Shown here one piece after another: positions 1 to 10,205 of a DNA stretch of 10,424 nucleotides. A program made the position numbers and the translations under genes. The DNA is taken from the UHGV virus genome UHGV-0117022. One strand, given 5' to 3'. The notes under the pieces were generated by a model. That model was not told the DNA's origin. It ran no database searches and worked only from the letters and a program-made list of their open reading frames with translations. The stretch's first letter is position 1. Each line of letters starts with the position of its first letter. Source of the stretch: a virus.

Positions 1-74
1 TCCGTAACGCCTCTGCCACGCGCGTAACGTGACAGGGATTAAGGGTAAACTAACTGATTTTACAAGTTTTTATT

Positions 75-1361
75 TTACCCCACTTTCTTATGGGGCATAC
101 ATGGGACACTTTCAGATAGTCTTTTGTTAAGGAGTTCTATCTGTTCGTGATTGTTGTCTTTCATCCATGCTCCGTAAACATTGAATACCATTTGTGCGTT
201 TGTGTGGCCCATCTGGCTTGCGATAAAACTAGGATTAGCTCCAGCGGCAAGTGACCAGCATGCATAAGTATGCCTGGATTGGTACGATTTTCTGTGTCTC
301 AGACCTGCGCGTTTTAAGATACTTGTCCATGACTCCCTGATGGAGTCAACCTTATAGTGCGGTCCGGAAAACTGCCGCTGTTTTATTACCTGAGGACTAA
401 AAACAAAAGTGCATTTATGCACAGTACTTCTCCCATATTCCCTCTGCTTTACCTCTACAGAATGTTGCTTTCCAAGCATGGTCATTTCCGCCTGACTTTT
501 AAGAGCATCAATAGCTGGTTGAACCAGATGAATTGTCCTTCCGGTGCCAGCATCGGTTTTTGGTGGAGTGAATTCGCCAAGTTTTGTATAATTCCTACGG
601 ATGGTTATAGTCCTTGCTTTAAGATCTATATCTTCCCATGCCAGCGATACCAGCTCCCCGTGACGAATACCCGTGTATACAGCGAGAATCCACAGGTTTT
701 TTGTTTGTTGATGACGGCAAGCCTCAATAAAACGAATAAATTCGTCACGGGTGAGAGGATCTGGTTTTACCTTGGACTTTTTTAAGGGTGCCAGACCGTT
801 AAATGGGTTTCCTGAGGTATAACCATTATCTGTTGCAAATTGAAACATTCCAGCTATGGTTGTCATATAGTAGTTTACTGTGACCACTGAGCGCCCTTTT
901 ATGGAAGAAATCTTTCCATTAGAAAGCTTATGGTAACCGGTCAACAAATCTCTCCTTGCGAAAAGTAAATCCTCTTTTGTTATGGATGAAACCAGTTTTT
1001 TCTCACCCAACATAGGCAACATGTTTTTAATTACTGACTGGTAACGATTAAGTGCATTCGCACAAATCTCAATTTTCTTAAGGTCCAACCATTTTTCCGA
1101 AAGTGCCTTAACGGTTATCTCTCTTTTTCCCAGACCAAAGTGTTTCAGGTTAGGGGAATTAGGGAACTGTGTGGCGTAGTCGAAACACCCCATTCTGATT
1201 GCAAAACAAACGGAAGTGCGAAGTTCACCTGCGATCTTCCGGTTTTTGGCGGTGTCAGGAACACCGAGGTTTTCTCTGACACGTTTGCCATTATAGTGAA
1301 ACCATATACGGAGTGATCCTCCATGGTTTTCAACGCCTGTCGGGTATGATACGTTACTCAT
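75..1361 (-). CDS. int: Tyrosine-type site-specific integrase (lambda Int family), 428 aa
   Basis: ATG at 1361..1359 preceded by GGGAGG RBS. C-terminal catalytic signature visible in the translation: TGIRHGEL (box I Arg), HRKSYQSRHTYA (His-x-x-Arg) and NVYGAW (catalytic Tyr). N-terminal region resembles an arm-binding domain. Confidence 0.92.
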   Translation of the reverse strand: MSNVSYPTGVENHGGSLRIWFHYNGKRVRENLGVPDTAKNRKIAGELRTSVCFAIRMGCFDYATQFPNSPNLKHFGLGKREITVKALSEKWLDLKKIEICANALNRYQSVIKNMLPMLGEKKLVSSITKEDLLFARRDLLTGYHKLSNGKISSIKGRSVVTVNYYMTTIAGMFQFATDNGYTSGNPFNGLAPLKKSKVKPDPLTRDEFIRFIEACRHQQTKNLWILAVYTGIRHGELVSLAWEDIDLKARTITIRRNYTKLGEFTPPKTDAGTGRTIHLVQPAIDALKSQAEMTMLGKQHSVEVKQREYGRSTVHKCTFVFSPQVIKQRQFSGPHYKVDSIRESWTSILKRAGLRHRKSYQSRHTYACWSLAAGANPSFIASQMGHTNAQMVFNVYGAWMKDNNHEQIELLNKRLSESVPCMPHKKVG

Positions 1362-1394
1362 TAAACCTCCCAGACGTCCAGGAGCATTAACAGG

Positions 1395-1649
1395 TTAACC
1401 GGAACTTGCATTTTTGGCACCTGGTTGTTTCTGGTTTTCGATCCATCGCATAATTTCTTCGATGTTGTACAGGCATTCACTGTAATGCCCAGGATCACCT
1501 TCTACAGCGTAATGGCGGTATTCTTTTCCCTGCATCCATGACTTTCTCCTGGCCCGCTCGATGGTGCCGGGCTTTAGCCCTGTTGATGCAATAAGGACTC
1601 TCTCCGTACACCATTTGCTGGGGGTTATCTGATAGATGATTGTCTGCAT
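1395..1649 (-). CDS. xis: Excisionase-like small DNA-binding protein, 84 aa
   Basis: Small basic ORF immediately upstream of and co-oriented with int; ATG at 1649..1647 with GAGG RBS. Call rests mainly on position and size; sequence similarity to a named Xis family was not verified. Confidence 0.55.
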   Translation of the reverse strand: MQTIIYQITPSKWCTERVLIASTGLKPGTIERARRKSWMQGKEYRHYAVEGDPGHYSECLYNIEEIMRWIENQKQPGAKNASSG

Positions 1650-1667
1650 GCCAACCTCATAAAACTT

Positions 1668-1802
1668 TCATCCACGGCAGTGGCACCACATTTCAAACAT
1701 TCGCTTCACAACTTCACGACAGTAGAAACCGTCAACATCTCGCGTCAGATCATAGCGATTGCCGTAACGCTGGTGGACCCATCGTTCAAATGCTTTATTC
1801 AT
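1668..1802 (-). CDS. Hypothetical small protein, 44 aa (MNKAFERWVHQRYGNRYDLTRDVDGFYCREVVKRMFEMWCHCRG)
   Basis: Not in the supplied ORF track (below its size cut-off); hand-translated. ATG at 1802..1800 preceded by AAAAGGAAG RBS, stop at 1670..1668. It fills the gap between the upstream ORF stop (1808..1806) and the xis RBS. Confidence 0.4.
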   Translation of the reverse strand: MNKAFERWVHQRYGNRYDLTRDVDGFYCREVVKRMFEMWCHCRG

Positions 1803-1805
1803 TCT

Positions 1806-2048
1806 TTACTTCCTTTTCATGGCTCGTAATTTTTTCAGATGAGCTTCCTGCTCTGTTTCTGCCAGAATTTTGCGGTACTCCTGGTGGTCAATATGTTCGA
1901 ACAGGCTGTTGAACTCAGTGATGCGTACCCGCCCGGAGCGCCCGTCCATCCTCCGAAAGAATACCGAGTGAACAGTACTGCGAGTAATTTTTACCGGGTA
2001 GCCAGCACTATCGGTGTATATCTGCCCGCGTTGAATCAAAGCGAACAT
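1806..2048 (-). CDS. Hypothetical protein, 80 aa from the first ATG (track ORF 1806..2084 begins at a TTG)
   Basis: Open frame in the leftward operon. The codon at 2084..2082 is TTG; the first ATG is at 2048..2046. No recognisable motif. Confidence 0.4.
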   Translation of the reverse strand: MFALIQRGQIYTDSAGYPVKITRSTVHSVFFRRMDGRSGRVRITEFNSLFEHIDHQEYRKILAETEQEAHLKKLRAMKRK

Positions 2049-2132
2049 GTGGTTATCCCCATCGACAAATCGAGAACACAACAAACGCTGCTGCGAATAC
2101 CACCCCCAGAGTTACGATTGCATCAGGCCAGC

Positions 2133-2882
2133 TCATTGATTCACCTCCTGCCTGTCGTCCGGCATTCGCTCACTACAGCTTATCCAACCATCCGGAGTTA
2201 CCGGAACTTGTGGAATGGCTGTCTGCTCTCGAACGTCATTAGGCGCTATAGGTTCTGCTGCCAACTGACTGGCATATTTGTTAATGGTAACGATAAGCTC
2301 TTGCTCAGCCTCATCCAGACAATCACCGATACCTCGCCTGTCACCGTCAAAATCATCGAAATCGGCACGAATCCTGGCAACCTTCAGGATTGCGGACAAC
2401 ACCTCACTAGGAATTGCCGGATAGTTGGTTGACGTTTCCGCGATTTCCCGAAAATTATTGGTTGACGAATTCTTGTTTTCCCGAAAGTTTCCGGACTGAA
2501 GCATGGCGGCGCGGCAGGAGTTCCAGGCAAATAGTGCGGCTTCTTCCACTGAAGGCGGAGAGTATCGCTCGATAAACGCCTGTGCATTTGACAGCCTCCA
2601 CTCATGAGGCAATACCGGCGCTGGCGGGGCGATGCGTCCAAGCAACTTATTTACCTCTTTCGCCATCGCGTCATATTTATCTAAATAGCGATTAGCTTCT
2701 AAGCAGACTCGGTGCATCTGATCTGAGTTAACTCGTTTAACGGGATCTGCTTCCAGCGATGCCAGTGCAATCCGTGCCAGTTCTTCCGCTTCTTCTGCTG
2801 GCAGTACAACGTTGCTACCCGGTCCGTATGTTTCGCGCCACTGCTTGATTGTCAGCAGTCGCCCTTTGGTAATAGTGATCAT
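2133..2882 (-). CDS. Hypothetical protein, 249 aa
   Basis: Long ORF whose start overlaps the stop of the upstream nuclease-like gene in an ATGA arrangement (2882..2879). The C-terminal WISCSERMPDD stretch is reminiscent of the start of phage DUF551-type domains, but this is unverified. Confidence 0.55.
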   Translation of the reverse strand: MITITKGRLLTIKQWRETYGPGSNVVLPAEEAEELARIALASLEADPVKRVNSDQMHRVCLEANRYLDKYDAMAKEVNKLLGRIAPPAPVLPHEWRLSNAQAFIERYSPPSVEEAALFAWNSCRAAMLQSGNFRENKNSSTNNFREIAETSTNYPAIPSEVLSAILKVARIRADFDDFDGDRRGIGDCLDEAEQELIVTINKYASQLAAEPIAPNDVREQTAIPQVPVTPDGWISCSERMPDDRQEVNQ

Positions 2883-3710: not shown

Positions 3711-4408
3711 TGGTTGCCTCCTTTGCGAAGCTCTGCGGCAAAGTCAACTAACCACTCGGTCATTTCAACCTTCCCTACCAGGTCTGAACCAGGAAACATA
3801 CAGCAATCACTCTGCGCCGCTTTGAAATCCTTATACTCATATTCCTGAGCCACCAGATTTTTTGCAGCGTCTATAGCAGCATCCACCCCCTGCGCCCGCA
3901 CTTCAGCCAGGCATTTGCGAAACTCGGAAACGTACTGTTCGACGCTCATTCCCCAGCTAAGTGGACATTCATTGAATGTTTCGCCTTCGTGCTCTTCATC
4001 AGGTAGCTCTTTGGTAAAGAACTCACGTTCAATGGCGTGGAGTGTGTCAGCAAAACGACGTAAGTTACTCAAACCTGTCGTAATGGAGAATTCAGGAGCA
4101 TCACATCCGACGCCCATCTGCTGATAAACGGCGGTTTTGAAGGCCTTAAGCCCCGCATTCTCCGCCGCCAGCGCCGAAAACTTCTCGTGTGCCAACTTAA
4201 CAGCCGCATCAGCCTGCTTAATTGACTCAATCGCTTTCTGCTGGTCTTCGGCCAGCGCATTAGCACGCACCAGTTGCACTTCCAGTTGCGTTGCCAAATC
4301 GCTGATCAGCTTTGCCACACTGCGCATATCAACGGCACCACATTCTGCTTTCAGTTCCGAAGCCATCTCATGCCCGGCGGCAACTAACCCTTTGATATTA
4401 CTTTCCAT
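3707..4408 (-). CDS. Hypothetical coiled-coil-rich protein, 233 aa
   Basis: ATG at 4408..4406 with GAGGA RBS. The N-terminal half is Ala/Glu/Lys/Gln-rich, suggesting coiled coil. Translationally coupled to the downstream Ea22-like gene. Confidence 0.55.
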   Translation of the reverse strand: MESNIKGLVAAGHEMASELKAECGAVDMRSVAKLISDLATQLEVQLVRANALAEDQQKAIESIKQADAAVKLAHEKFSALAAENAGLKAFKTAVYQQMGVGCDAPEFSITTGLSNLRRFADTLHAIEREFFTKELPDEEHEGETFNECPLSWGMSVEQYVSEFRKCLAEVRAQGVDAAIDAAKNLVAQEYEYKDFKAAQSDCCMFPGSDLVGKVEMTEWLVDFAAELRKGGNQ

Positions 4409-4469
4409 CTTTATCCTCGCTTATCCACATAACTTATTGATTACATTGATAACTAAAAAGATCGTCGAT

Positions 4470-4814
4470 TCAGAACTCTTCGATTTTCCAGCCACCACCT
4501 GCTTTCTTTGGCTTAACAGTTACCCCGATGATTCGGAACGGATATTGATCTGCGGCGACTTTGGTTTTCACCCTGGCGTCGTCGGTCCAGAAACCTTTCA
4601 CTTCGTGCAGTTCCATCTCTCCGGTGGCGAGCATCACAGCGAAATCTGGCGTATAGAACGTGTTATCAGCTAACCGCAGCTTGATACCCTCGAATCGATA
4701 CCAGGCGATTTCCCCTGCACGTTTACGCAGCTCAAGGTGCTGGCAATACGCAGATTCTGTTTTGTTCATCTGGCCTGTTTTGAGTCGACCAAGAGCCTGT
4801 ATCTGTTTTCTCAT
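4470..4814 (-). CDS. DUF1064-family phage protein (possible PD-(D/E)xK-like fold), 114 aa
   Basis: Motifs YCQHLELRKRAGEI ... YTPDF ... ELHEVKG match the conserved pattern I recall for DUF1064 proteins, which are common next to phage replication genes. ATG at 4814..4812. Confidence 0.6.
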   Translation of the reverse strand: MRKQIQALGRLKTGQMNKTESAYCQHLELRKRAGEIAWYRFEGIKLRLADNTFYTPDFAVMLATGEMELHEVKGFWTDDARVKTKVAADQYPFRIIGVTVKPKKAGGGWKIEEF

Positions 4815-4831
4815 GATTTACCCTTGAGCTA

Positions 4832-4903
4832 ATTAAAAACCACATAAGACACGAAATCAATAGATTTTAGAATATTTTATTACCCGCCAGGTAATCATTG
4901 AAA
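4832..4903 (-). promoter_or_regulatory. Putative repressor-controlled internal promoter region: operator ATTACC-CGCCA-GGTAAT at 4879..4895 flanked by sigma70-like hexamers
   Basis: Perfect copy of the immunity-region operator palindrome. On the minus strand it lies in an 18-bp spacer between -35 TTTCAA (plus 4903..4898) and -10 TAAAAT (4879..4874). A second, stronger candidate lies just downstream: -35 TTGATT (4860..4855), 17-bp spacer, -10 TTTAAT (4837..4832), about 20 bp before the DUF1064 start. Confidence 0.45.
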
Positions 4904-4904
4904 C

Positions 4905-4926
4905 GTAAAAAAATGCGCTATCGCGC
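4905..4926 (-). terminator. Weak candidate intrinsic terminator after the P-like gene
   Basis: On the minus strand, GCGC-GATA-GCGC (4-bp GC stem) is followed by a run of seven T. The stem is short, so the call is tentative. Confidence 0.3.
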
Positions 4927-4931
4927 TGGTA

Positions 4932-5717
4932 TTACTTGATAAATCCTGCCGCCTTTCCCCGCCTGTATTCCTCCATCAGCCACTGCGCCGGTGTTATTCC
5001 CCCCAGGGTGGCGGCGTTAGGCATGCACCCGAAACTTCGCCCTGGTGGATGGTAAACGTCTCTCCCTGTGTCCGGAGGTGTACTCATGGGTTCTGGCTTT
5101 GCCTGTATGCTGATCACCGGATCGGGTATCTGCTGTCCGGAAGCCACCTTTTTCGCCCAATCATCGAGCAGCCTGCGCGCGTGTTTCTCAACCTCAATCT
5201 CGCTAAGCTGGCGCTGATACATTGCACGGCGGGTATCACATACGACCCAGTACATAACCGGATGTCGCCACGGGAATCTTTCGGGACCACCAGGATATAA
5301 ACTTTTTTCCTTGCTGTACCGGTGAAACTCCGCCATCACATCGTCAATGGTGACGCCAAGAACCATCTTGCTGTCTTTACACCACTTGATAAATTGCCCT
5401 GGCGACGGCCAGAACGGAGATTCACTGGCGCGGGCGTGGCGCATACCAGCAGAAACCTGTTCACGGGTTCGGATCCCCCCTTCGGCAAACGCAGCAATCC
5501 ACTGCTGTTTTGCAGCAACTTCCTGCTCTTGCGTCTTCAGGTTGGTTACCACTGCCGCCGGAAACAGTTGTTTCAGCTGTTTGAAAAGGGCATCAACAAG
5601 CCTCTCTGCTGACATGTTCACCACGTTGTCATTGTTGGTGTACTGATGCTCATAACCTGACATGCGAGAAAGGGCTTCTCCGTCACGGTTTTGTATCGCG
5701 GTAAAAACGTTGTTCAC
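4932..5717 (-). CDS. P: Lambda P-like replication protein (replicative helicase loader), about 261 aa
   Basis: Clear similarity to recalled lambda P: window MRHARASESPFWPSPGQFIKWCKD versus lambda MRVARRQNRPFLPSPGQFVAWCRE. Likely start is GTG at 5717..5715 (GGAGGA RBS 6 nt upstream, GTGA overlap with the O-like stop) rather than the track ATG at 5732. Confidence 0.78.
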   Translation of the reverse strand: MNNVFTAIQNRDGEALSRMSGYEHQYTNNDNVVNMSAERLVDALFKQLKQLFPAAVVTNLKTQEQEVAAKQQWIAAFAEGGIRTREQVSAGMRHARASESPFWPSPGQFIKWCKDSKMVLGVTIDDVMAEFHRYSKEKSLYPGGPERFPWRHPVMYWVVCDTRRAMYQRQLSEIEVEKHARRLLDDWAKKVASGQQIPDPVISIQAKPEPMSTPPDTGRDVYHPPGRSFGCMPNAATLGGITPAQWLMEEYRRGKAAGFIK

Positions 5718-6529
5718 AAGAAATCCTCCCATGCTTCAGGGCTGTTCCAGTGCGGAACGTTGTTATCAGGTAATGTTGATTGCTTCTGTCTGCTAATCTG
5801 CAGCCTCCTTGCCAGCTTCTGCTCCCACTGTGCCTGATGGTATGCCTTACCCTCAGCCATCCAGTAAATTCTGAACTCTGCAAGTTCCTGTGCCGTTGGC
5901 AGACTGTCCAGGTAGATTCCCTGCAATGAGCTTTTCCGAAGAAAGTCATCTGATGGCTGCCATTGTTCATGCATGACAAATTTACCTAATTGCCCTGGCC
6001 CACCAGGAGGAACAAAGTTATTCATCACGGCGTTGTTTGCGACGGGGTCATGAGGCACAGAATCCCCGGTTTTTGTCCTGCTCTCCCTCTCTTGGTTAAA
6101 TGACTGGTTATATGACTGGTTCTGGATCCCGTTTTTGGGATCATTCAACATCCCGTTTTTGGGATCATTCAACATCCCGTTTTTGGGTATATTCCCGTTT
6201 TCGGTAACATTACCGTTTTCGGGTTCATTGCCCCCCTCCCGGTTGCCTTTAATGTTCCCGTTTTTGGTTATATTAAGAGAGAAAACCCGCACTCTTTTTG
6301 TCGCTCCCTTTCTCTCTCCGGTATCTGAAATAAGCCCCATTTTCATGAGCGATATAAGCCCGGCCTGCACGGTTTTTTTATTCAGGCAAGTGTCTTTAAC
6401 GAGGCGTTCTATGCTGGGGTAGCAGAGGTTATATTCATCGGCTCTGTCAGCCATCGAGAGCAGTATGAGCTTTAATGATGAGCTACCTGGATCTGTCTCC
6501 CAGGCCCAATCTGTTGCATGTCTGCTCAT
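5714..6529 (-). CDS. O: Replication initiator, functional analogue of lambda O: N-terminal HTH domain, Asn/Gly-rich repeat linker, C-terminal DnaT-like domain; 271 aa
   Basis: N-terminus LKLILLSMADRADEYNLCYPSIERLVKDTCLNKKTVQAGLISLMKMGLIS looks like a winged-HTH replication-initiator domain. C-terminus WQPSDDFL...ELAEFRIYWMAEGKAYHQAQWEQKLARRL resembles the DnaT C-terminal pattern. It sits directly upstream of and is coupled to the P-like gene, and carries iterons internally. Confidence 0.75.
   Translation of the reverse strand: MSRHATDWAWETDPGSSSLKLILLSMADRADEYNLCYPSIERLVKDTCLNKKTVQAGLISLMKMGLISDTGERKGATKRVRVFSLNITKNGNIKGNREGGNEPENGNVTENGNIPKNGMLNDPKNGMLNDPKNGIQNQSYNQSFNQERESRTKTGDSVPHDPVANNAVMNNFVPPGGPGQLGKFVMHEQWQPSDDFLRKSSLQGIYLDSLPTAQELAEFRIYWMAEGKAYHQAQWEQKLARRLQISRQKQSTLPDNNVPHWNSPEAWEDFL
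6126..6290. repeat. Iteron array (candidate replication origin) inside the O-like gene: six copies of (A/T)TCCCGTTTT(T)GGG
   Basis: Direct repeats read from the sequence at 6126..6141, 6150..6165, 6174..6189, 6192..6207, 6210..6225 and 6275..6290, with spacings of 24, 24, 18, 18 and 65 bp. Each unit has internal dyad symmetry (TCCC-N6-GGGA), as lambda ori iterons do. A further short direct repeat ATGACTGGTT x2 lies at 6101..6122. Confidence 0.6.
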
Positions 6530-6544
6530 GATTAATCTCCGCTA

Positions 6545-6745
6545 TCAGCTTGAGTGTTGTGGGGAGGAATTAATCATGATCTGCTTAATCTCTGCCCTGA
6601 TGCGACGGTTTGATTCCATGGTGCACTCAACACAGTGTCCGTTGTAAACCCAGCGTTCACTGTCATGTCCATGCTTACATGGTTTTCCGGTGTAGTAGCG
6701 TTTAAGTCCGCGCTTTGCGGCATCAATACGTGTAATGATTTCCAT
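6545..6745 (-). CDS. Small Cys/His zinc-ribbon-like protein, 66 aa from the ATG at 6745 (track ORF extends to 6808)
   Basis: Translation MEIITRIDAAKRGLKRYYTGKPCKHGHDSERWVYNGHCVEC contains a C-x-H ... H-C-x-x-C arrangement. It occupies the cII-like position between the Cro-like gene and the O-like gene. Start choice is uncertain (ATG at 6781 or 6745, both with weak RBS). Confidence 0.45.
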   Translation of the reverse strand: MEIITRIDAAKRGLKRYYTGKPCKHGHDSERWVYNGHCVECTMESNRRIRAEIKQIMINSSPQHSS

Positions 6746-6825
6746 GGTAAGCCCTGTTATTAGTATTGGGATTACGGTCATTTTGTGCTGACACAAAAAA
6801 AAGATCAACCAGATTTGGTTATTTA

Positions 6826-6840
6826 TTACCTTTGAGGTAC
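6826..6840. promoter_or_regulatory. Operator-like site TTACC-TTTGA-GGTAC (9 of 10 half-site matches)
   Basis: Same palindrome as the immunity-region operators, placed just downstream (in the leftward sense) of the terminator hairpin and upstream of the Zn-ribbon and replication genes. A nearby small palindrome AACCA-GATT-TGGTT lies at 6808..6821. Confidence 0.4.
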
Positions 6841-6846
6841 GAATAG

Positions 6847-6874
6847 ATATGAAAAGACCGCCGGGTGGCGGTCT
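6847..6874 (-). terminator. Intrinsic terminator candidate directly downstream of the Cro-like gene
   Basis: Perfect 8-bp stem AGACCGCC / GGCGGTCT (6855..6862 and 6867..6874) with a 4-nt loop. On the minus strand it is followed by TTTTCAT; there is no T-run on the plus strand. Confidence 0.5.
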
Positions 6875-6895
6875 ACAGAGGGTTGTAGCTGGATA

Positions 6896-7126
6896 TCATG
6901 AGTAGAAGAAGTATGCCAGTTCTGCTTTTGAGCGCAGCCATTGTCTTGTTTTACAGGCTTTAAAAAGCCCATTCATCAATACTTTACCTGGCATTTTGCG
7001 CTTACCTGTTAAGTGAGTCTGGATATAGTGACTCGTCGTTCCGGCTTCCTGTGCGAAGGCTTCACGCTCATCCGGAGTAAGTGCAAGCCAGTGCTTTTTG
7101 AAATCGAAATGTCCGTTATCGCTCAT
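6896..7126 (-). CDS. Cro/CII-like small HTH DNA-binding regulator, 76 aa
   Basis: Small ORF transcribed divergently from the repressor gene, starting 154 bp from it across the operator cluster. EREAFAQEAGTTSHYIQTHLTGKRK looks like an HTH followed by a basic stretch. The functional label is from position. Confidence 0.55.
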   Translation of the reverse strand: MSDNGHFDFKKHWLALTPDEREAFAQEAGTTSHYIQTHLTGKRKMPGKVLMNGLFKACKTRQWLRSKAELAYFFYS

Positions 7127-7162
7127 AGCTATTGCCTGATATTTATTTCAGATAATAAATAT

Positions 7163-7225
7163 TCACCCATAAGGTAACAAAAATCAAGGATAGTTACCTA
7201 TGAGGTGCATTTACCTGTTGGGTAA
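7163..7225. promoter_or_regulatory. Operator cluster (OR-like) between the divergent Cro-like and repressor genes: three TTACC-N5-GGTAA-type sites
   Basis: Sites at 7163..7177 (TCACC-CATAA-GGTAA), 7194..7208 (TTACC-TATGA-GGTGC) and 7211..7225 (TTACC-TGTTG-GGTAA, perfect). Promoter hexamers for both divergent genes must lie in 7127..7280, but I could not place them unambiguously. Confidence 0.6.
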
Positions 7226-7280
7226 TATTGCTTTAAATTGAATCATCTACTGATTCATATATGAGGCGATTTTCCAGAAA

Positions 7281-7865
7281 ATGAAAAGTATCCAGGACGT
7301 CCGCAGGCAAAATCTCAACGACTTGATCGACCGTGAATTCAATGGTGTTCAGACGCGGATGGCAGAAAAACTTGGAACTCAGGCAAATCTGGTAAACCGC
7401 TGGGCTCTTGGCAAGAAGGTTATCGGCGACCAGGTTGCGCGAAAAATTGAAGCTGCCGCCAATAAACCCCGTAACTGGCTTGATATCGATCGCTCGCTTT
7501 CTCAGGAAGGTTTTCAGCCTGTCGGCCCAAGCGACATTGGTCAGCTGGCGGCTCACAACCTGGAACGCTGGATGAGCGAAAGCCGCGACCTTTCAACGCA
7601 GGGAAAACTTCACCGCGCATCCGGCGTCGCCCAGGTGACAATCAGTCGCCTGTTAAACAATGAGGTCAGCGTTTCCATTTCCACCCTGGAGAATGTTGCA
7701 TCCGCATTCGGGCGTCACGGCTATGAATTACTGATTCACCCGCACGACCCTGCGACCATCAACTATGACCGCTCGCGCTACGCATTGTTACCCGAAACCG
7801 AGAAAGCAAAGATCGAAAGTTACATTGAATTTGTCATCAACCAGAACGAAAAAAACAAACAATAA
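7281..7865 (+). CDS. Prophage repressor (CI-like role) with two HTH (XRE-type) regions and no recognisable S24/LexA-type peptidase domain, 194 aa
   Basis: N-terminal VQTRMAEKLGTQANLVNRWALGKKVIGDQVARKIE and a second HTH-like segment GVAQVTISRLLNNEVSVSISTLENVASAFG. The gene is monocistronic, bracketed by operator clusters and followed by a strong terminator. I saw no Ala-Gly/Ser-Lys cleavage-domain signature. Confidence 0.7.
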   Translation: MKSIQDVRRQNLNDLIDREFNGVQTRMAEKLGTQANLVNRWALGKKVIGDQVARKIEAAANKPRNWLDIDRSLSQEGFQPVGPSDIGQLAAHNLERWMSESRDLSTQGKLHRASGVAQVTISRLLNNEVSVSISTLENVASAFGRHGYELLIHPHDPATINYDRSRYALLPETEKAKIESYIEFVINQNEKNKQ

Positions 7866-7885
7866 AATCATACTTTTCAGTAAGT

Positions 7886-7912
7886 AAGCCGCCTTCTGGC
7901 GGCTTTTTTATT
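7886..7912 (+). terminator. Rho-independent terminator of the repressor gene
   Basis: Stem AAGCCGCC / GGCGGCTT (8 bp) with loop TTCT, followed by TTTTTTATT, 21 bp after the repressor stop codon. Confidence 0.75.
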
Positions 7913-7922
7913 GCCTATACTA

Positions 7923-7999
7923 TTACCTGATGGGTAATTTTTTTAACTCATATCTATTGACATCAAACCAAATACGCATAATTATTACCTCAACGGTAA
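7923..7999 (+). promoter_or_regulatory. Rightward early promoter/operator region (PL-like role): two perfect operators flanking a consensus -35
   Basis: Operators at 7923..7937 (TTACC-TGATG-GGTAA) and 7985..7999 (TTACC-TCAAC-GGTAA). Consensus -35 TTGACA at 7957..7962; an AT-rich -10-like stretch (CATAAT/TAATTA, 7977..7984) abuts the second operator, though the exact -10 and spacing are ambiguous. The first rightward gene starts at 8019. Confidence 0.6.
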
Positions 8000-8018
8000 C
8001 AGACCGAGGTAACAAGTT

Positions 8019-8171
8019 ATGCAGTGGAAAATCATCAACGGTTGGTACTGCGTTACTGCATGCGGATTCATGAGCTGGAAGTTCCGCACCTTACAGGAAG
8101 GCATTAAGTGGGCTTTCGTCAGCAAAGAAGCTCGCGATGTGGCCAACGATAACGAGATATGGGAGGGCTGA
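8019..8171 (+). CDS. Hypothetical small Trp-rich protein, 50 aa (MQWKIINGWYCVTACGFMSWKFRTLQEGIKWAFVSKEARDVANDNEIWEG)
   Basis: Not in the ORF track (too short); hand-translated. ATG at 8019 with GAGGT RBS 8 nt upstream. Its stop TGA at 8169..8171 sits 2 nt before the next start and within that gene's GGGAGGG RBS. First gene after the rightward promoter. Confidence 0.45.
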   Translation: MQWKIINGWYCVTACGFMSWKFRTLQEGIKWAFVSKEARDVANDNEIWEG

Positions 8172-8173
8172 TA

Positions 8174-8473
8174 ATGAACGTTAATCAGCAGAAAAATCTT
8201 CAAAAAATCATGCTGGCATTCGACAAGGACTACCGCCTGTCAGAACAGCTATATGACCGACAAGTTGAACTGATTGAGAGCATCCGACTTCATCAACTGT
8301 CCTCAACTTTCGACGTTGTAACAGGCAAAGGCGTTCGTCAGGAAGTGCTGGAGGCTGCTAAAGACAGCCCTGAGTTCGAAGAACTGATGGATGCCTACCG
8401 GCGCGAGGCAATGGCAATTATAGCGCGCTGGGATCTGGCGGATCAGCTTGATGGACAGAGGGACGCGGCATGA
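8174..8473 (+). CDS. Hypothetical protein, 99 aa (track ORF begins at an upstream alternative start, 8159)
   Basis: ATG at 8174 with GGGAGGG RBS; the stop overlaps the exonuclease start as ATGA (8470..8473). No motif recognised. Confidence 0.5.
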   Translation: MNVNQQKNLQKIMLAFDKDYRLSEQLYDRQVELIESIRLHQLSSTFDVVTGKGVRQEVLEAAKDSPEFEELMDAYRREAMAIIARWDLADQLDGQRDAA

Positions 8474-9291
8474 AACCGGGAATTTATTTCGACATCAGCA
8501 ACGAAGACTACCACGCCGGTGACGGCGTGAGTAAGTCGCAACTGGACATGGTTGCCAAGAATCCGGCGCTTCTTAAATGGGTTCAGGCAGCACCAGAAGA
8601 CGAAGAGAAAAAGTCTGCACTGGATATGGGAACCGCATTGCACTGTCTGCTTCTGGAGCCTGGAGAATTCGACAAACGCTTCATTGTTTCACCGAAGTTC
8701 GATCGTCGGACGAAACAAGGTAAAGCTGACGAAGAAGCATTTCTTCGTGATGTAGCGGATATGGGGATTACGGTACTTGATGCCGAGCAGTGGCGGAAAC
8801 TGGAGCTGATGCGTGATAGCGCAATGGCTCACCCGGCGGCACGCTGGATGCTGGAAGCACCTGGTTACTGCGAAGCATCAATGTACTGGAACGATGAAGA
8901 GACGGGTGAGTTGTGCCGAATTCGTCCAGACAAATGGCTGAACGAGCACAACGTGATCGTCGACGTGAAAAAGGTTGCAGATATGGACCGTTTTGCACGT
9001 CACATCGAGGAATTCCGCTACCACGTGCAGGACGCAATGTACCGCGAAGGCGCAATGAGGGTTACTGGTCAGCCGCATGGTTTTTTCTTTCTTGCCGTGA
9101 GCGAAAGCATTGATTGTGGTCGGTATCCGGTACGCGTGTTCGGGCTGGATGCGCCGGATGTCGATGCCGGGCACGCTCTGTTCCGCCGGGATCTGAATAC
9201 CTATCACGAATGCCGCATCAGCGATGAATGGGGCGGCGTGGAAATTATTAAACGCCCTGAGTGGGCACGCAAACAGGATATGTACGTATGA
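8470..9291 (+). CDS. RecE-like (exonuclease VIII-type) PD-(D/E)xK recombination exonuclease, 273 aa
   Basis: N-terminal GIYFDISNEDYHAGDGVSKSQL matches the start I recall for short prophage exonuclease VIII / RecE C-terminal nuclease-domain proteins. RPD...IVDVK fits a PD-(D/E)xK core. It is coupled to the downstream annealing-protein gene. Confidence 0.7.
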   Translation: MKPGIYFDISNEDYHAGDGVSKSQLDMVAKNPALLKWVQAAPEDEEKKSALDMGTALHCLLLEPGEFDKRFIVSPKFDRRTKQGKADEEAFLRDVADMGITVLDAEQWRKLELMRDSAMAHPAARWMLEAPGYCEASMYWNDEETGELCRIRPDKWLNEHNVIVDVKKVADMDRFARHIEEFRYHVQDAMYREGAMRVTGQPHGFFFLAVSESIDCGRYPVRVFGLDAPDVDAGHALFRRDLNTYHECRISDEWGGVEIIKRPEWARKQDMYV

Positions 9292-10205
9292 GCAACGAAA
9301 TTGCAATCACCAATGATGTGTTGGCTATTCGGGGAATCGATGAAGTTACATGGAGCGCTCTGAAAAACAGTATTTACCCTGGGGCAAAAGATGAATCGGT
9401 AATGATGGCAGTCGATTACTGCCGGGCGCGTCAACTCGATCCTCTTCTTAAGCCGGTACACCTGGTACCAATGAGTGTTAAAGACTCGAAGAGTGGAAAG
9501 AATGAATGGCGCGACGTGGTCATGCCTGGCATTGGACTTTATCGCATTCAGGCCTACCGTTCCGGCGATTACGCAGGCGCTAATGAACCTGAGTTCGGTC
9601 CAGATGTAACACAAACGCTTTCAGGCGTGGAGGTTACCTTCCCTCAGTGGTGTAAGTACACCGTCAGCAAGCGAATGGCAAGCGGGGAAATCGTAGAGTT
9701 TAGCGCCAAAGAATACTGGATTGAGAACTATGCAACTGGGGGGCGTGACACATCGGCACCAAATGCCATGTGGAAAAAGCGCCCTTATGCGCAGTTGGCA
9801 AAATGCGCAGAGGCACAGGCATTACGTAAAGCATGGCCGGAGATTGGTCAACAAGCCACAGCTGAGGAAATGGAAGGTAAATATATCGACTCACCTGACA
9901 TTATTGAACGTGACGTAACTCCAAGAAGTCAGGCAAAGCACGGCACAGCATCCAGCATGAACAGTCTGATCAACGCTAAACCAGTGAAAAAGCATGATGA
10001 GCAAACGCGTAAAGCGGATAGCCGTGATCCAGAAGAAATGCTGATGGCCTTTACCAGCGCAGCGATGAATTACAGCACTGTCTCCGAACTGGATAAGGCT
10101 TACAAATACATTGCACAAAAACTTTCAGATGATGACGAACTGCTGGCAAAAGCCACCGACGTTTACAGCGTTCGTCGGGAAGAATTAAACGAAACATCTA
10201 TGTAA
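9288..10205 (+). CDS. Single-strand annealing protein of the Bet/RecT (Red-beta) superfamily, about 305 aa
   Basis: ATG at 9288 overlaps the exonuclease stop as ATGA (the track start at 9261 is a GTG). Segments VDYCRARQLDPLLKPVHLVP, GIGLYRIQAYRSGDYAG and MWKKRPYAQLAKCAEAQALRKAWPE align by eye with lambda Bet/RecT conserved blocks. Confidence 0.75.
   Translation: MSNEIAITNDVLAIRGIDEVTWSALKNSIYPGAKDESVMMAVDYCRARQLDPLLKPVHLVPMSVKDSKSGKNEWRDVVMPGIGLYRIQAYRSGDYAGANEPEFGPDVTQTLSGVEVTFPQWCKYTVSKRMASGEIVEFSAKEYWIENYATGGRDTSAPNAMWKKRPYAQLAKCAEAQALRKAWPEIGQQATAEEMEGKYIDSPDIIERDVTPRSQAKHGTASSMNSLINAKPVKKHDEQTRKADSRDPEEMLMAFTSAAMNYSTVSELDKAYKYIAQKLSDDDELLAKATDVYSVRREELNETSM

Follow-up and report, generated by a model that had tools for sequence, protein, structure and literature searches.

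The stretch of DNA analysed here, UHGV virus genome UHGV-0117022 (10,424 nt; the window), can be assigned from its sequence to the immunity and early region of a prophage of the phiV10/epsilon15 type (Uetakevirus, podoviruses). Positions 4400-8300 are 98% identical to Escherichia coli phage phiV10 and to the related phages PAS61, ZX5 and phiv142-3, and this part is present in 562 of 5,426 complete E. coli genomes (~10%), including avian pathogenic (APEC), extraintestinal pathogenic (ExPEC) and O157 strains. The genes for a repressor and a cro-like protein, a leftward series of replication and accessory genes and a rightward recombination series (Table 1) are interspersed with copies of the palindrome TTACC-N5-GGTAA. 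We give a probability of roughly 80% to the reading that these dyads are operators bound by the immunity repressor that the prophage itself encodes at 7281-7865 (Rep below), through which the early units would be shut off cassette by cassette and independently of one another.

The dyad and its conservation

Sites were searched for as TTACC-N5-GGTAA over the whole window, with mismatches counted in the half-sites, and the chance level was taken from the expectation and from 200 shuffles. Four perfect dyads were found (4880, 7211, 7923 and 7985) where 0.01 are expected, and none of the 200 shuffles contained four or more. With up to one mismatch allowed, the number rises to seven against 0.20 expected, the additional sites being 6826 (GGTAC half), 7163 (TCACC half) and 4818 (TTACCCTTGAGCTAA, GCTAA half). 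An earlier note on this DNA had listed the four perfect sites at exactly these coordinates and had described 6826-6840 and 7163-7177 as near-perfect, which agrees with our single mismatch in each. Its total of seven copies was correct as far as it went, since every site it named was found again, but it lacked an eighth at 4818-4832, which lies 62 bp from the 4880 dyad and is perfect in the closest relatives. Its remaining near-perfect site, 7194-7208 (TTACCTATGAGGTGC), stands in place and as an operator position, although it has two mismatches rather than one; we regard the position as genuine because the syntenic site is perfect in epsilon15, SPC32H and the Klebsiella phage. Another match with two mismatches, at 7002-7016 inside the cro-like gene, was left out, as 3.3 such matches are expected by chance. 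The dyads counted lie in intergenic DNA without exception, next to predicted promoters, and 134 distinct perfect sites give the extended consensus aTTACCy-N3-rGGTAAt with A/T-rich flanks.

The earlier note had also allowed for a common site of the host chromosome. In 50 kb of the E. coli chromosome, there were no perfect and two one-mismatch matches against 1.1 expected, and one match with one mismatch turned up in 15 kb of host sequence next to a related prophage. The counts in the host DNA scanned are thus at chance level, and TTACC-N5-GGTAA is not a host motif.

Table 1 Genes and predicted regulatory features of the window (operators, promoters and starts are predicted; a point in the strand column marks dyads entered without strand)
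Feature	Position	Strand	Remarks
Integrase	75-1361	-	
Excisionase	1395-1649	-	
DUF1064 / resolvase-like	4470-4814	-	
Proximal operator of the distal leftward promoter	4818..4832	-	Minus strand TTAGCTCAAGGGTAA; 1 mismatch; centre ~+1
Start of the DUF1064/Ea22-type block promoter	near 4825	-	
Promoter of the DUF1064/Ea22-type block	4832..4860	-	-35 TTGATT 4860-4855, N17, -10 TTTAAT 4837-4832
Upstream operator of the distal pair	4880..4894	.	Perfect; centre ~-62; 13 bp past U-tract of the post-P terminator
Weak putative intrinsic terminator after the P-like gene	4907..4926	-	GCGC-GAUA-GCGC, then U7
P-like replication protein	4932-5732	-	
O-like protein	5714-6529	-	HTH_36 + DnaT
gp42-like	6545-6745	-	
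Start of the replication-gene promoter	near 6773	-	
Promoter of the gp42-like, O-like and P-like replication genes	6780..6808	-	-35 TTGATC 6808-6803, N17, -10 CAAAAT 6785-6780
Imperfect operator	6826..6840	.	Minus strand GTACCTCAAAGGTAA; 15 bp past the post-cro terminator; centre ~-60 of the replication-gene promoter
Intrinsic terminator behind the cro-like gene	6855..6874	-	-15 kcal/mol, z -4.7
cro-like HTH gene, 76 aa	6896..7126	-	phiV10 gp41 / epsilon15 gp39; phrog_35 'transcriptional repressor', E 5.6e-13
Leftward lytic promoter of the cro-like gene	7152..7188	-	TTGTTA(7180-7175)-N17-TATTAT(7157-7152), or with invariant TTGATT 7188-7183
cro-proximal operator, divergent control region	7163..7177	.	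TCACC half, 1 mismatch; within predicted cro promoter core
Middle control-region operator	7194..7208	.	2 mismatches, GGTGC half; 17 bp from 7211, 31 bp from 7163
Promoter of the repressor gene	7210..7238	+	TTTACC-N17-TTAAAT; hexamers invariant or nearly so in 6 phages
Repressor-proximal operator	7211..7225	.	Perfect; overlaps -35 and spacer of the predicted repressor-gene promoter
Repressor, SPC32H Rep type, 194 aa	7281..7865	+	N-terminal HTH, second HTH-like domain, C-terminal oligomerisation segment
Strong intrinsic terminator behind the repressor gene	7886..7905	+	-21 kcal/mol, z -6.9
Upstream operator of the rightward early promoter	7923..7937	.	Perfect; centre ~-62; T-tract, then promoter
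Rightward early promoter	7957..7985	+	TTGACA-N17-AATTAT; gp39-like, gp38-like, RecE-like and RecT genes
Proximal operator of the rightward early promoter	7985..7999	.	Perfect; spans -10 and +1
Two small genes	8019-8171, 8159-8473	+	
RecE-like	8470-9291	+	
RecT	9261-10205	+	

The same dyad occupies syntenic positions in phiV10, in the Enterobacter phages BUCT554 and Tyrion, in Klebsiella phage BUCT711, and in epsilon15 and SPC32H, the repressors of which are only 42-78% identical to that of the window. In alignments of the four regulatory regions, the mean pairwise column identity was 0.90 in the half-sites, 0.51 in the N5 spacer and 0.63 in all other columns (p ~1e-11 to 1e-13). The constraint is thus confined to the half-sites, and the spacer varies freely. 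Within populations, we used 80 IMG/VR contigs of metagenomic or viral origin, a set in which every Rep is 100% identical and which holds no more distant relatives. In these contigs, the distal cassette occurs in 66 distinct versions and the rightward one in 53, with invariant half-sites and variable spacers; the 7211 dyad is invariant, N5 included, in 80/80 loci.

The imperfections are conserved as well. The TCACC half of the 7163 dyad was found in 80/80 loci and in every member of the genus, with the imperfect half on the other side in the epsilon15 group, and TCACC recurs at other one-mismatch sites (phiV10 positions 20877 and 24692). At 6826, the GGTAC half is present in 51/56 IMG/VR loci; across the genus, GGTAAT is kept unchanged on one side of the dyad, and the opposite half is always degenerate (nnACC). 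Such conserved imperfections suggest tuned affinities or a discrimination between Rep and the cro-like protein. The 4818 dyad is a different case: it is perfect in 6/6 aligned relatives (phiV10 and five others), in the 99.5%-identical prophage of APEC E18055 and, with a single exception, in every locus that could be detected here in the 80 contigs, so that the window carries a private point mutation (C-to-G, giving TTAGC on the minus strand). This change may mean leaky repression, or decay in a hybrid prophage.

Promoters, terminators and the cassette layout

The dyads flank or overlap conserved sigma70-like hexamers, as read from the sequence alone. A consensus scan for promoters does not discriminate by itself, and conservation was therefore used for their assignment. 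The predicted promoter of the DUF1064 block, CTATTGATT (-35 at 4860-4855)-N17-TTTAAT, sits between the 4880 and 4818 dyads in the same layout as the rightward promoter 7957-7985; its CTATTGA and its -10 are invariant in seven phages and at least 90% conserved over the 66 distinct cassettes. For the rightward promoter itself, 10 of 12 positions match the consensus, with CTATTGACA at -35 (7957-7962) and an invariant CTATTGAC. The predicted cro promoter matches at 9/12 positions and contains AAAAATCAA, invariant in the control-region alignment, and in the replication-gene promoter TGGTTGATCTTTTTT (-35 at 6808-6803) and AAAAT are invariant in six phages. In the control region, the 7163 dyad lies over the core of the predicted cro promoter and the 7211 dyad over the -35 of the predicted repressor promoter. 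Further starts are predicted near 7992 and 7245 on the plus strand and at 7145-7153 on the minus strand. A rightward promoter at 7132-7160, which would have the 7163 dyad at +1 and was considered for its resemblance to 'CTATTG', was dropped, being absent in the epsilon15 group.

Beyond the control region, the features follow one order: 13-17 bp past an intrinsic terminator comes a dyad centred some 60 to 62 bp upstream of the predicted start, and this is followed by an A/T tract and then by a promoter of the sigma70 type. Two of these cassettes have a second dyad: 7923/7985 before the rightward recombination genes and 4880/4818 before the leftward DUF1064 block, where it lies exactly 62 bp downstream over the -10 and +1. 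Over all loci, the pair spacing is 62 bp in 163 cases, 63 bp in three and 61 bp in one. The spacings in the control region are 31 and 17 bp; 31 bp is about three turns of the helix and 62 bp about six. The cassette of the replication genes has only a TTACC-like half-site at +1. The terminator preceding the 4880 dyad has a stem and T-run that are invariant in seven phages, and the phiV10 record annotates a putative terminator there.

This map bears on how the two sites far from the repressor gene are to be understood. According to the earlier note, the 4880 dyad lies in the spacer of a promoter, the hexamers of which were not given. The reading that fits, TTTCAA(-35)-N18-TAAAAT(-10), does not hold as the main promoter, as its -35 is conserved neither in the seven phages nor in the 66 cassettes; it may be a second promoter in tandem with the conserved one. 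The AAAAT tract downstream of the dyad is invariant and is better read as an UP-like element or a bending A-tract. From its position, the 4880 dyad is best assigned as the upstream partner of a -62/+1 pair with 4818, in the same layout as 7923/7985. The placement of 4880 and 6826, which had been thought unusual, is the norm throughout the genus and is partly annotated already in epsilon15. The proposal of three repressor-gated leftward units and one rightward unit agrees well with the predicted map, in which 6826 and 4880 each follow a terminator and precede a promoter conserved in the genus. The xis/int block, by contrast, had been counted into the leftward operon and is a lambdoid module added by recombination, not a native target.

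Another important question is whether all dyads act as operators of a promoter. It is conceivable, though rather unlikely, that only the sites in core promoters (7163, 7211, 7985 and 4818) do so, that 4880, 6826 and 7923 are auxiliary anchors by which the repressor is concentrated locally, or roadblocks to elongation, and that 6826 has no promoter of its own, the replication genes being reached by read-through from the cro promoter. All three of these dyads do lie 13-17 bp past a terminator, the 6826 dyad is always imperfect, and the promoter assigned to the replication genes is weak and lacks a full dyad at +1. However, TTGATC-N17-CAAAAT is invariant among phages in surroundings that are about 64% conserved, the strong 6855-6874 terminator would otherwise starve the replication genes, and a search of the named early genes, which was not exhaustive, brought up nothing that resembles an antiterminator gene or a nut element.

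Some half-sites appear in a second role. GGTAA halves double as Shine-Dalgarno sequences: GAGGTAAC precedes the ATG of the gp39-like gene by 7-8 nt (window 8000-8018), and the GGGTAA half of the 4818 dyad lies 3-5 nt before the ATG of the DUF1064 gene at 4814 (window 4815-4822). The mRNA leaders from the predicted starts would be only ~10-27 nt long.

The repressor, the cro-like protein and the use of the dyads

The protein encoded at 7281-7865 is, by homology, a full-length counterpart of SPC32H Rep. In a phmmer search of PDB, it matched 5d50_A over residues 1-190 (E 4e-42) and 5d4z_A over residues 89-190 (E 4e-20). Pfam recognised helix-turn-helix (HTH) domains at residues 21-61 and 104-148 alone and no peptidase (LexA/S24) domain. 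The N-terminal recognition helix, NLVNRW, is invariant across the aligned repressors. F184, also invariant, aligns with a tetramer-interface phenylalanine described in PMC9986798, and the second interface phenylalanine is a tyrosine here.

In papers that cite the work on SPC32H (PMC9638917, PMC9986798), SPC32H Rep is described as having an N-terminal DNA-binding, a middle dimerisation and a C-terminal tetramerisation domain, the last of these resembling the corresponding domains of DNA-looping regulators. It binds palindromic sites as a tetramer with two domain pairs ~100 Å apart and is dismantled by the antirepressor Ant (same sources). The repressor of the window is also 100% identical to ORF21 of phage ZX5, the overexpression of which left no free phage and lowered the transcripts of holin and endolysin by over 99.9% (PMC9782041); operator binding was only speculated upon in that paper. 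Together with the homology to SPC32H Rep and the annotation 'repressor / lysogeny' in epsilon15, this identity argues for the earlier note's view that the dyads are operators of one repressor.

How the system would work can be outlined as follows. In a lysogen, Rep would occupy all dyads and shut off each early unit independently. SPC32H Rep is reported to be a tetramer with two pairs of DNA-binding domains, so that one tetramer can plausibly hold two dyads, and paired dyads would be bridged in this way. The dyads behind terminators would also block read-through from the neighbouring unit, and a lambda-style antitermination cascade would not be needed. By homology, induction would proceed through a LexA-controlled antirepressor encoded outside the window and not through RecA-mediated cleavage.

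A more specific version is possible, but we hold it only tentatively and think it more probably wrong than right: the two dyads of a cassette, facing the same side of the helix, would be gripped together by one Rep tetramer, with the promoter wrapped in a micro-loop and the upstream dyad acting also as a roadblock behind the terminator, so that autonomous terminator-operator-promoter-operator cassettes, all released at once by one antirepressor, would replace the antitermination cascade. The 62-, 31- and 17-bp geometry, known here from the letters of the DNA only, is consistent with tetramer binding, and the unusual SPC32H Rep tetramer may be matched on the DNA by the 62-bp pairs together with the control region's 31-bp pair.

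Several observations weigh against the reading of the dyads as Rep operators of independent cassettes, or against parts of it. The consensus scan of the region found four promoters against 4.7 expected, which is not above chance, and the replication-gene promoter, with a consensus match of 8/12, consequently falls below the threshold of the scan. The fold of the post-P terminator reaches just -8.4 kcal/mol (z -2.1) and is weak. A loop of 62 bp is very tight. In the control region, it is the predicted promoter of the repressor gene that has the perfect dyad, and the dyad of the cro promoter is always imperfect, the reverse of the affinity order in lambda. Finally, the cro-like protein is more conserved than Rep and may underlie the invariance of the half-sites.

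The last point leads to an alternative that we consider improbable, namely that the dyads are mainly targets of the cro-like protein (6896-7126), which would use them to shut down the early genes in the lytic phase, with Rep binding a subset of them or binding secondarily. This protein belongs with the HTH proteins (phrog_35; PHROGs matched, and a Pfam search gave no match), has an invariant AGTTSHYIQ.HLTG and is 58-84% identical throughout the genus against 42-78% for Rep, in parallel with the half-sites. Cro and CI act on common operators in lambda-type switches, and the recurrent TCACC half could mean a differing affinity for two proteins. On the other side, the recognition helix of Rep is invariant as well, the dyads are annotated in epsilon15 as sites of the repressor, and overexpression of Rep alone silences lytic genes. 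Use of the dyads by both proteins is more likely than use by the cro-like protein alone. That the dyad is bound by a host factor, or is a repeat due to chance or composition and plays no part in immunity, has a practically negligible probability: nothing except the A/T-rich intergenic context speaks for it, and four perfect copies against 0.01 expected, the chance-level counts in host DNA, the intergenic positions next to promoters and conservation in the half-sites alone speak against it. Operators of Rep, shared perhaps with the cro-like protein, thus remain our preferred reading.

With phiV10, epsilon15 and an APEC prophage as proxies for a scan of the whole prophage, dyads were found beyond the early region too. 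The phiV10 genome contains 14 dyads with up to one mismatch against 0.64 expected. Those outside the early region lie at positions 87, 105, 3252, 20497, 20877, 24692 and 26870 in phiV10 and at 12, 30, 2932, 19896, 24704 and 26882 in epsilon15, several of the positions being common to both phages. They mark the beginning of terS and the DNA ahead of the head operon and of int, flank a small Ant-like gene on either side, and occur in the divergent region of serotype conversion and lysis. Judging from these positions, Rep may directly gate the late, lysis, conversion and integrase units and exert feedback on ant.

In SPC32H, the antirepressor gene is reportedly under LexA control. In phiV10, a perfect LexA box (CTGTATAAATACACAG, 20822-20837) lies 22 bp upstream of the 85-aa gene p24, which is small and Ant-like, and a Rep dyad of the TCACC type lies 40 bp further upstream; this LexA box matches the arrangement reported for SPC32H. 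The antirepressor locus is outside the window, and the prophage of the window is a hybrid.

Related systems and the hybrid prophage

The closest characterised system is Rep/Ant of the Salmonella phage SPC32H (PDB 5D50, 5D4Z). The repressors are homologous over the full length (~42% identity); both are built of three parts in the same way and lack a peptidase domain, and the SPC32H genome has TTACC-N5-GGTAA dyads at the same positions. The window differs in its host (E. coli) and in its immunity allele, the middle and C-terminal parts of the repressor being strongly diverged; its middle control-region dyad is degenerate where that of SPC32H is perfect, and it lacks the third dyad that SPC32H and epsilon15 have before the first rightward gene. 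In the epsilon15 record (AY150271.2 / NC_004775.2), the same dyad of 15-17 bp is annotated as 'protein_bind: repressor / lysogeny' downstream of the repressor gene (the equivalent of 7923), in the gap between the replication gene and the next leftward gene (the equivalent of 4880), and before terS, gp3 and the tail-fibre gene. Five further sites can be read in the epsilon15 sequence but are missing from its annotation: the three of the control region, the one behind the post-cro terminator and, in the distal pair, the proximal member. The phiV10-type records contain no equivalent annotation of repressor sites, and full-text literature searches for the motif and for Uetakevirus operators returned nothing that defines the operators, the primary papers on SPC32H and epsilon15 being outside the coverage of these searches.

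In lambda, single PL and PR operons are extended by N antitermination, and CI is cleavable with the aid of RecA. The window resembles lambda in the divergent repressor and cro-like genes around a three-site control region, in a second set of operators that guards a recombination operon across the repressor gene, and in dyad-symmetric targets of HTH proteins. The arrangement is nevertheless not that of lambda, as the earlier note had rightly concluded: extra promoters, predicted to be repressor-gated and each behind a terminator, lie within what would be the PR operon, the leftward side consists of three terminator-promoter cassettes in place of a single antiterminated operon, and the operators are paired at -62/+1, whereas lambda has three adjacent sites. 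The repressor has no S24 domain and would be non-cleavable and, by homology, tetrameric, and a perfect dyad lies over its own promoter. No N- or Q-type gene was recognised by domain and PHROGs annotation among the small early genes, a search that was not exhaustive.

Regulons with dispersed operators are known from P1 (C1), mycobacteriophage L5 (gp71 and its 'stoperators') and N15/PY54 (CB; for PY54, PMC4488713). They share with the window a single repressor with many scattered sites, some placed where an elongating polymerase could be stopped. The L5 stoperators are asymmetric, depend on orientation and often lie within genes, whereas the sites described here are symmetric, intergenic and paired at a fixed phase of 62 bp.

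The repressor family is thus a known one, and the layout is genus-wide, thinly documented and in part annotated before; the finding is correct and statistically solid but largely ordinary. It extends the characterised SPC32H/epsilon15 system to relatives in E. coli and reveals no new system. What it usefully adds is the model of cassettes, their constant phasing of 62 bp and a corrected assignment of the promoters. From a correct map of operators and promoters, one can tell the genes that stay silent in a lysogen, the promoters that become active upon induction and the way in which a hybrid like this one would express int and xis, and compact, phased cassettes with a non-cleavable repressor released by an antirepressor are possible parts for synthetic biology.

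The left ~2.15 kb of the window (1-2160) consists of the 3' end of the host gene mlrA (yehV) and a lambdoid int/xisR/DUF4222 module foreign to this type of phage, and joins the Uetakevirus early region near 2155, inside genes of the DUF551/Ea22 type. Native phiV10-type prophages are located at guaA and have a P4-type integrase at the other end. The whole window was found in one place in no complete E. coli genome. The foreign left module and the absence of a genome with the whole window indicate that the window represents a hybrid or rearranged prophage, in which transcription from the distal promoter, under the control of the repressor, would now run on into xis and int.

The O-like gene contains tandem repeats at 6093-6229: 2.4 copies of a 12-bp unit (6093-6121), 2.6 copies of a 24-bp unit with 100% identity (6126-6187), each of which forms a small hairpin, and 3.1 copies of an 18-bp unit (6175-6229). 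These repeats look like origin iterons within the initiator gene, as in lambda O.

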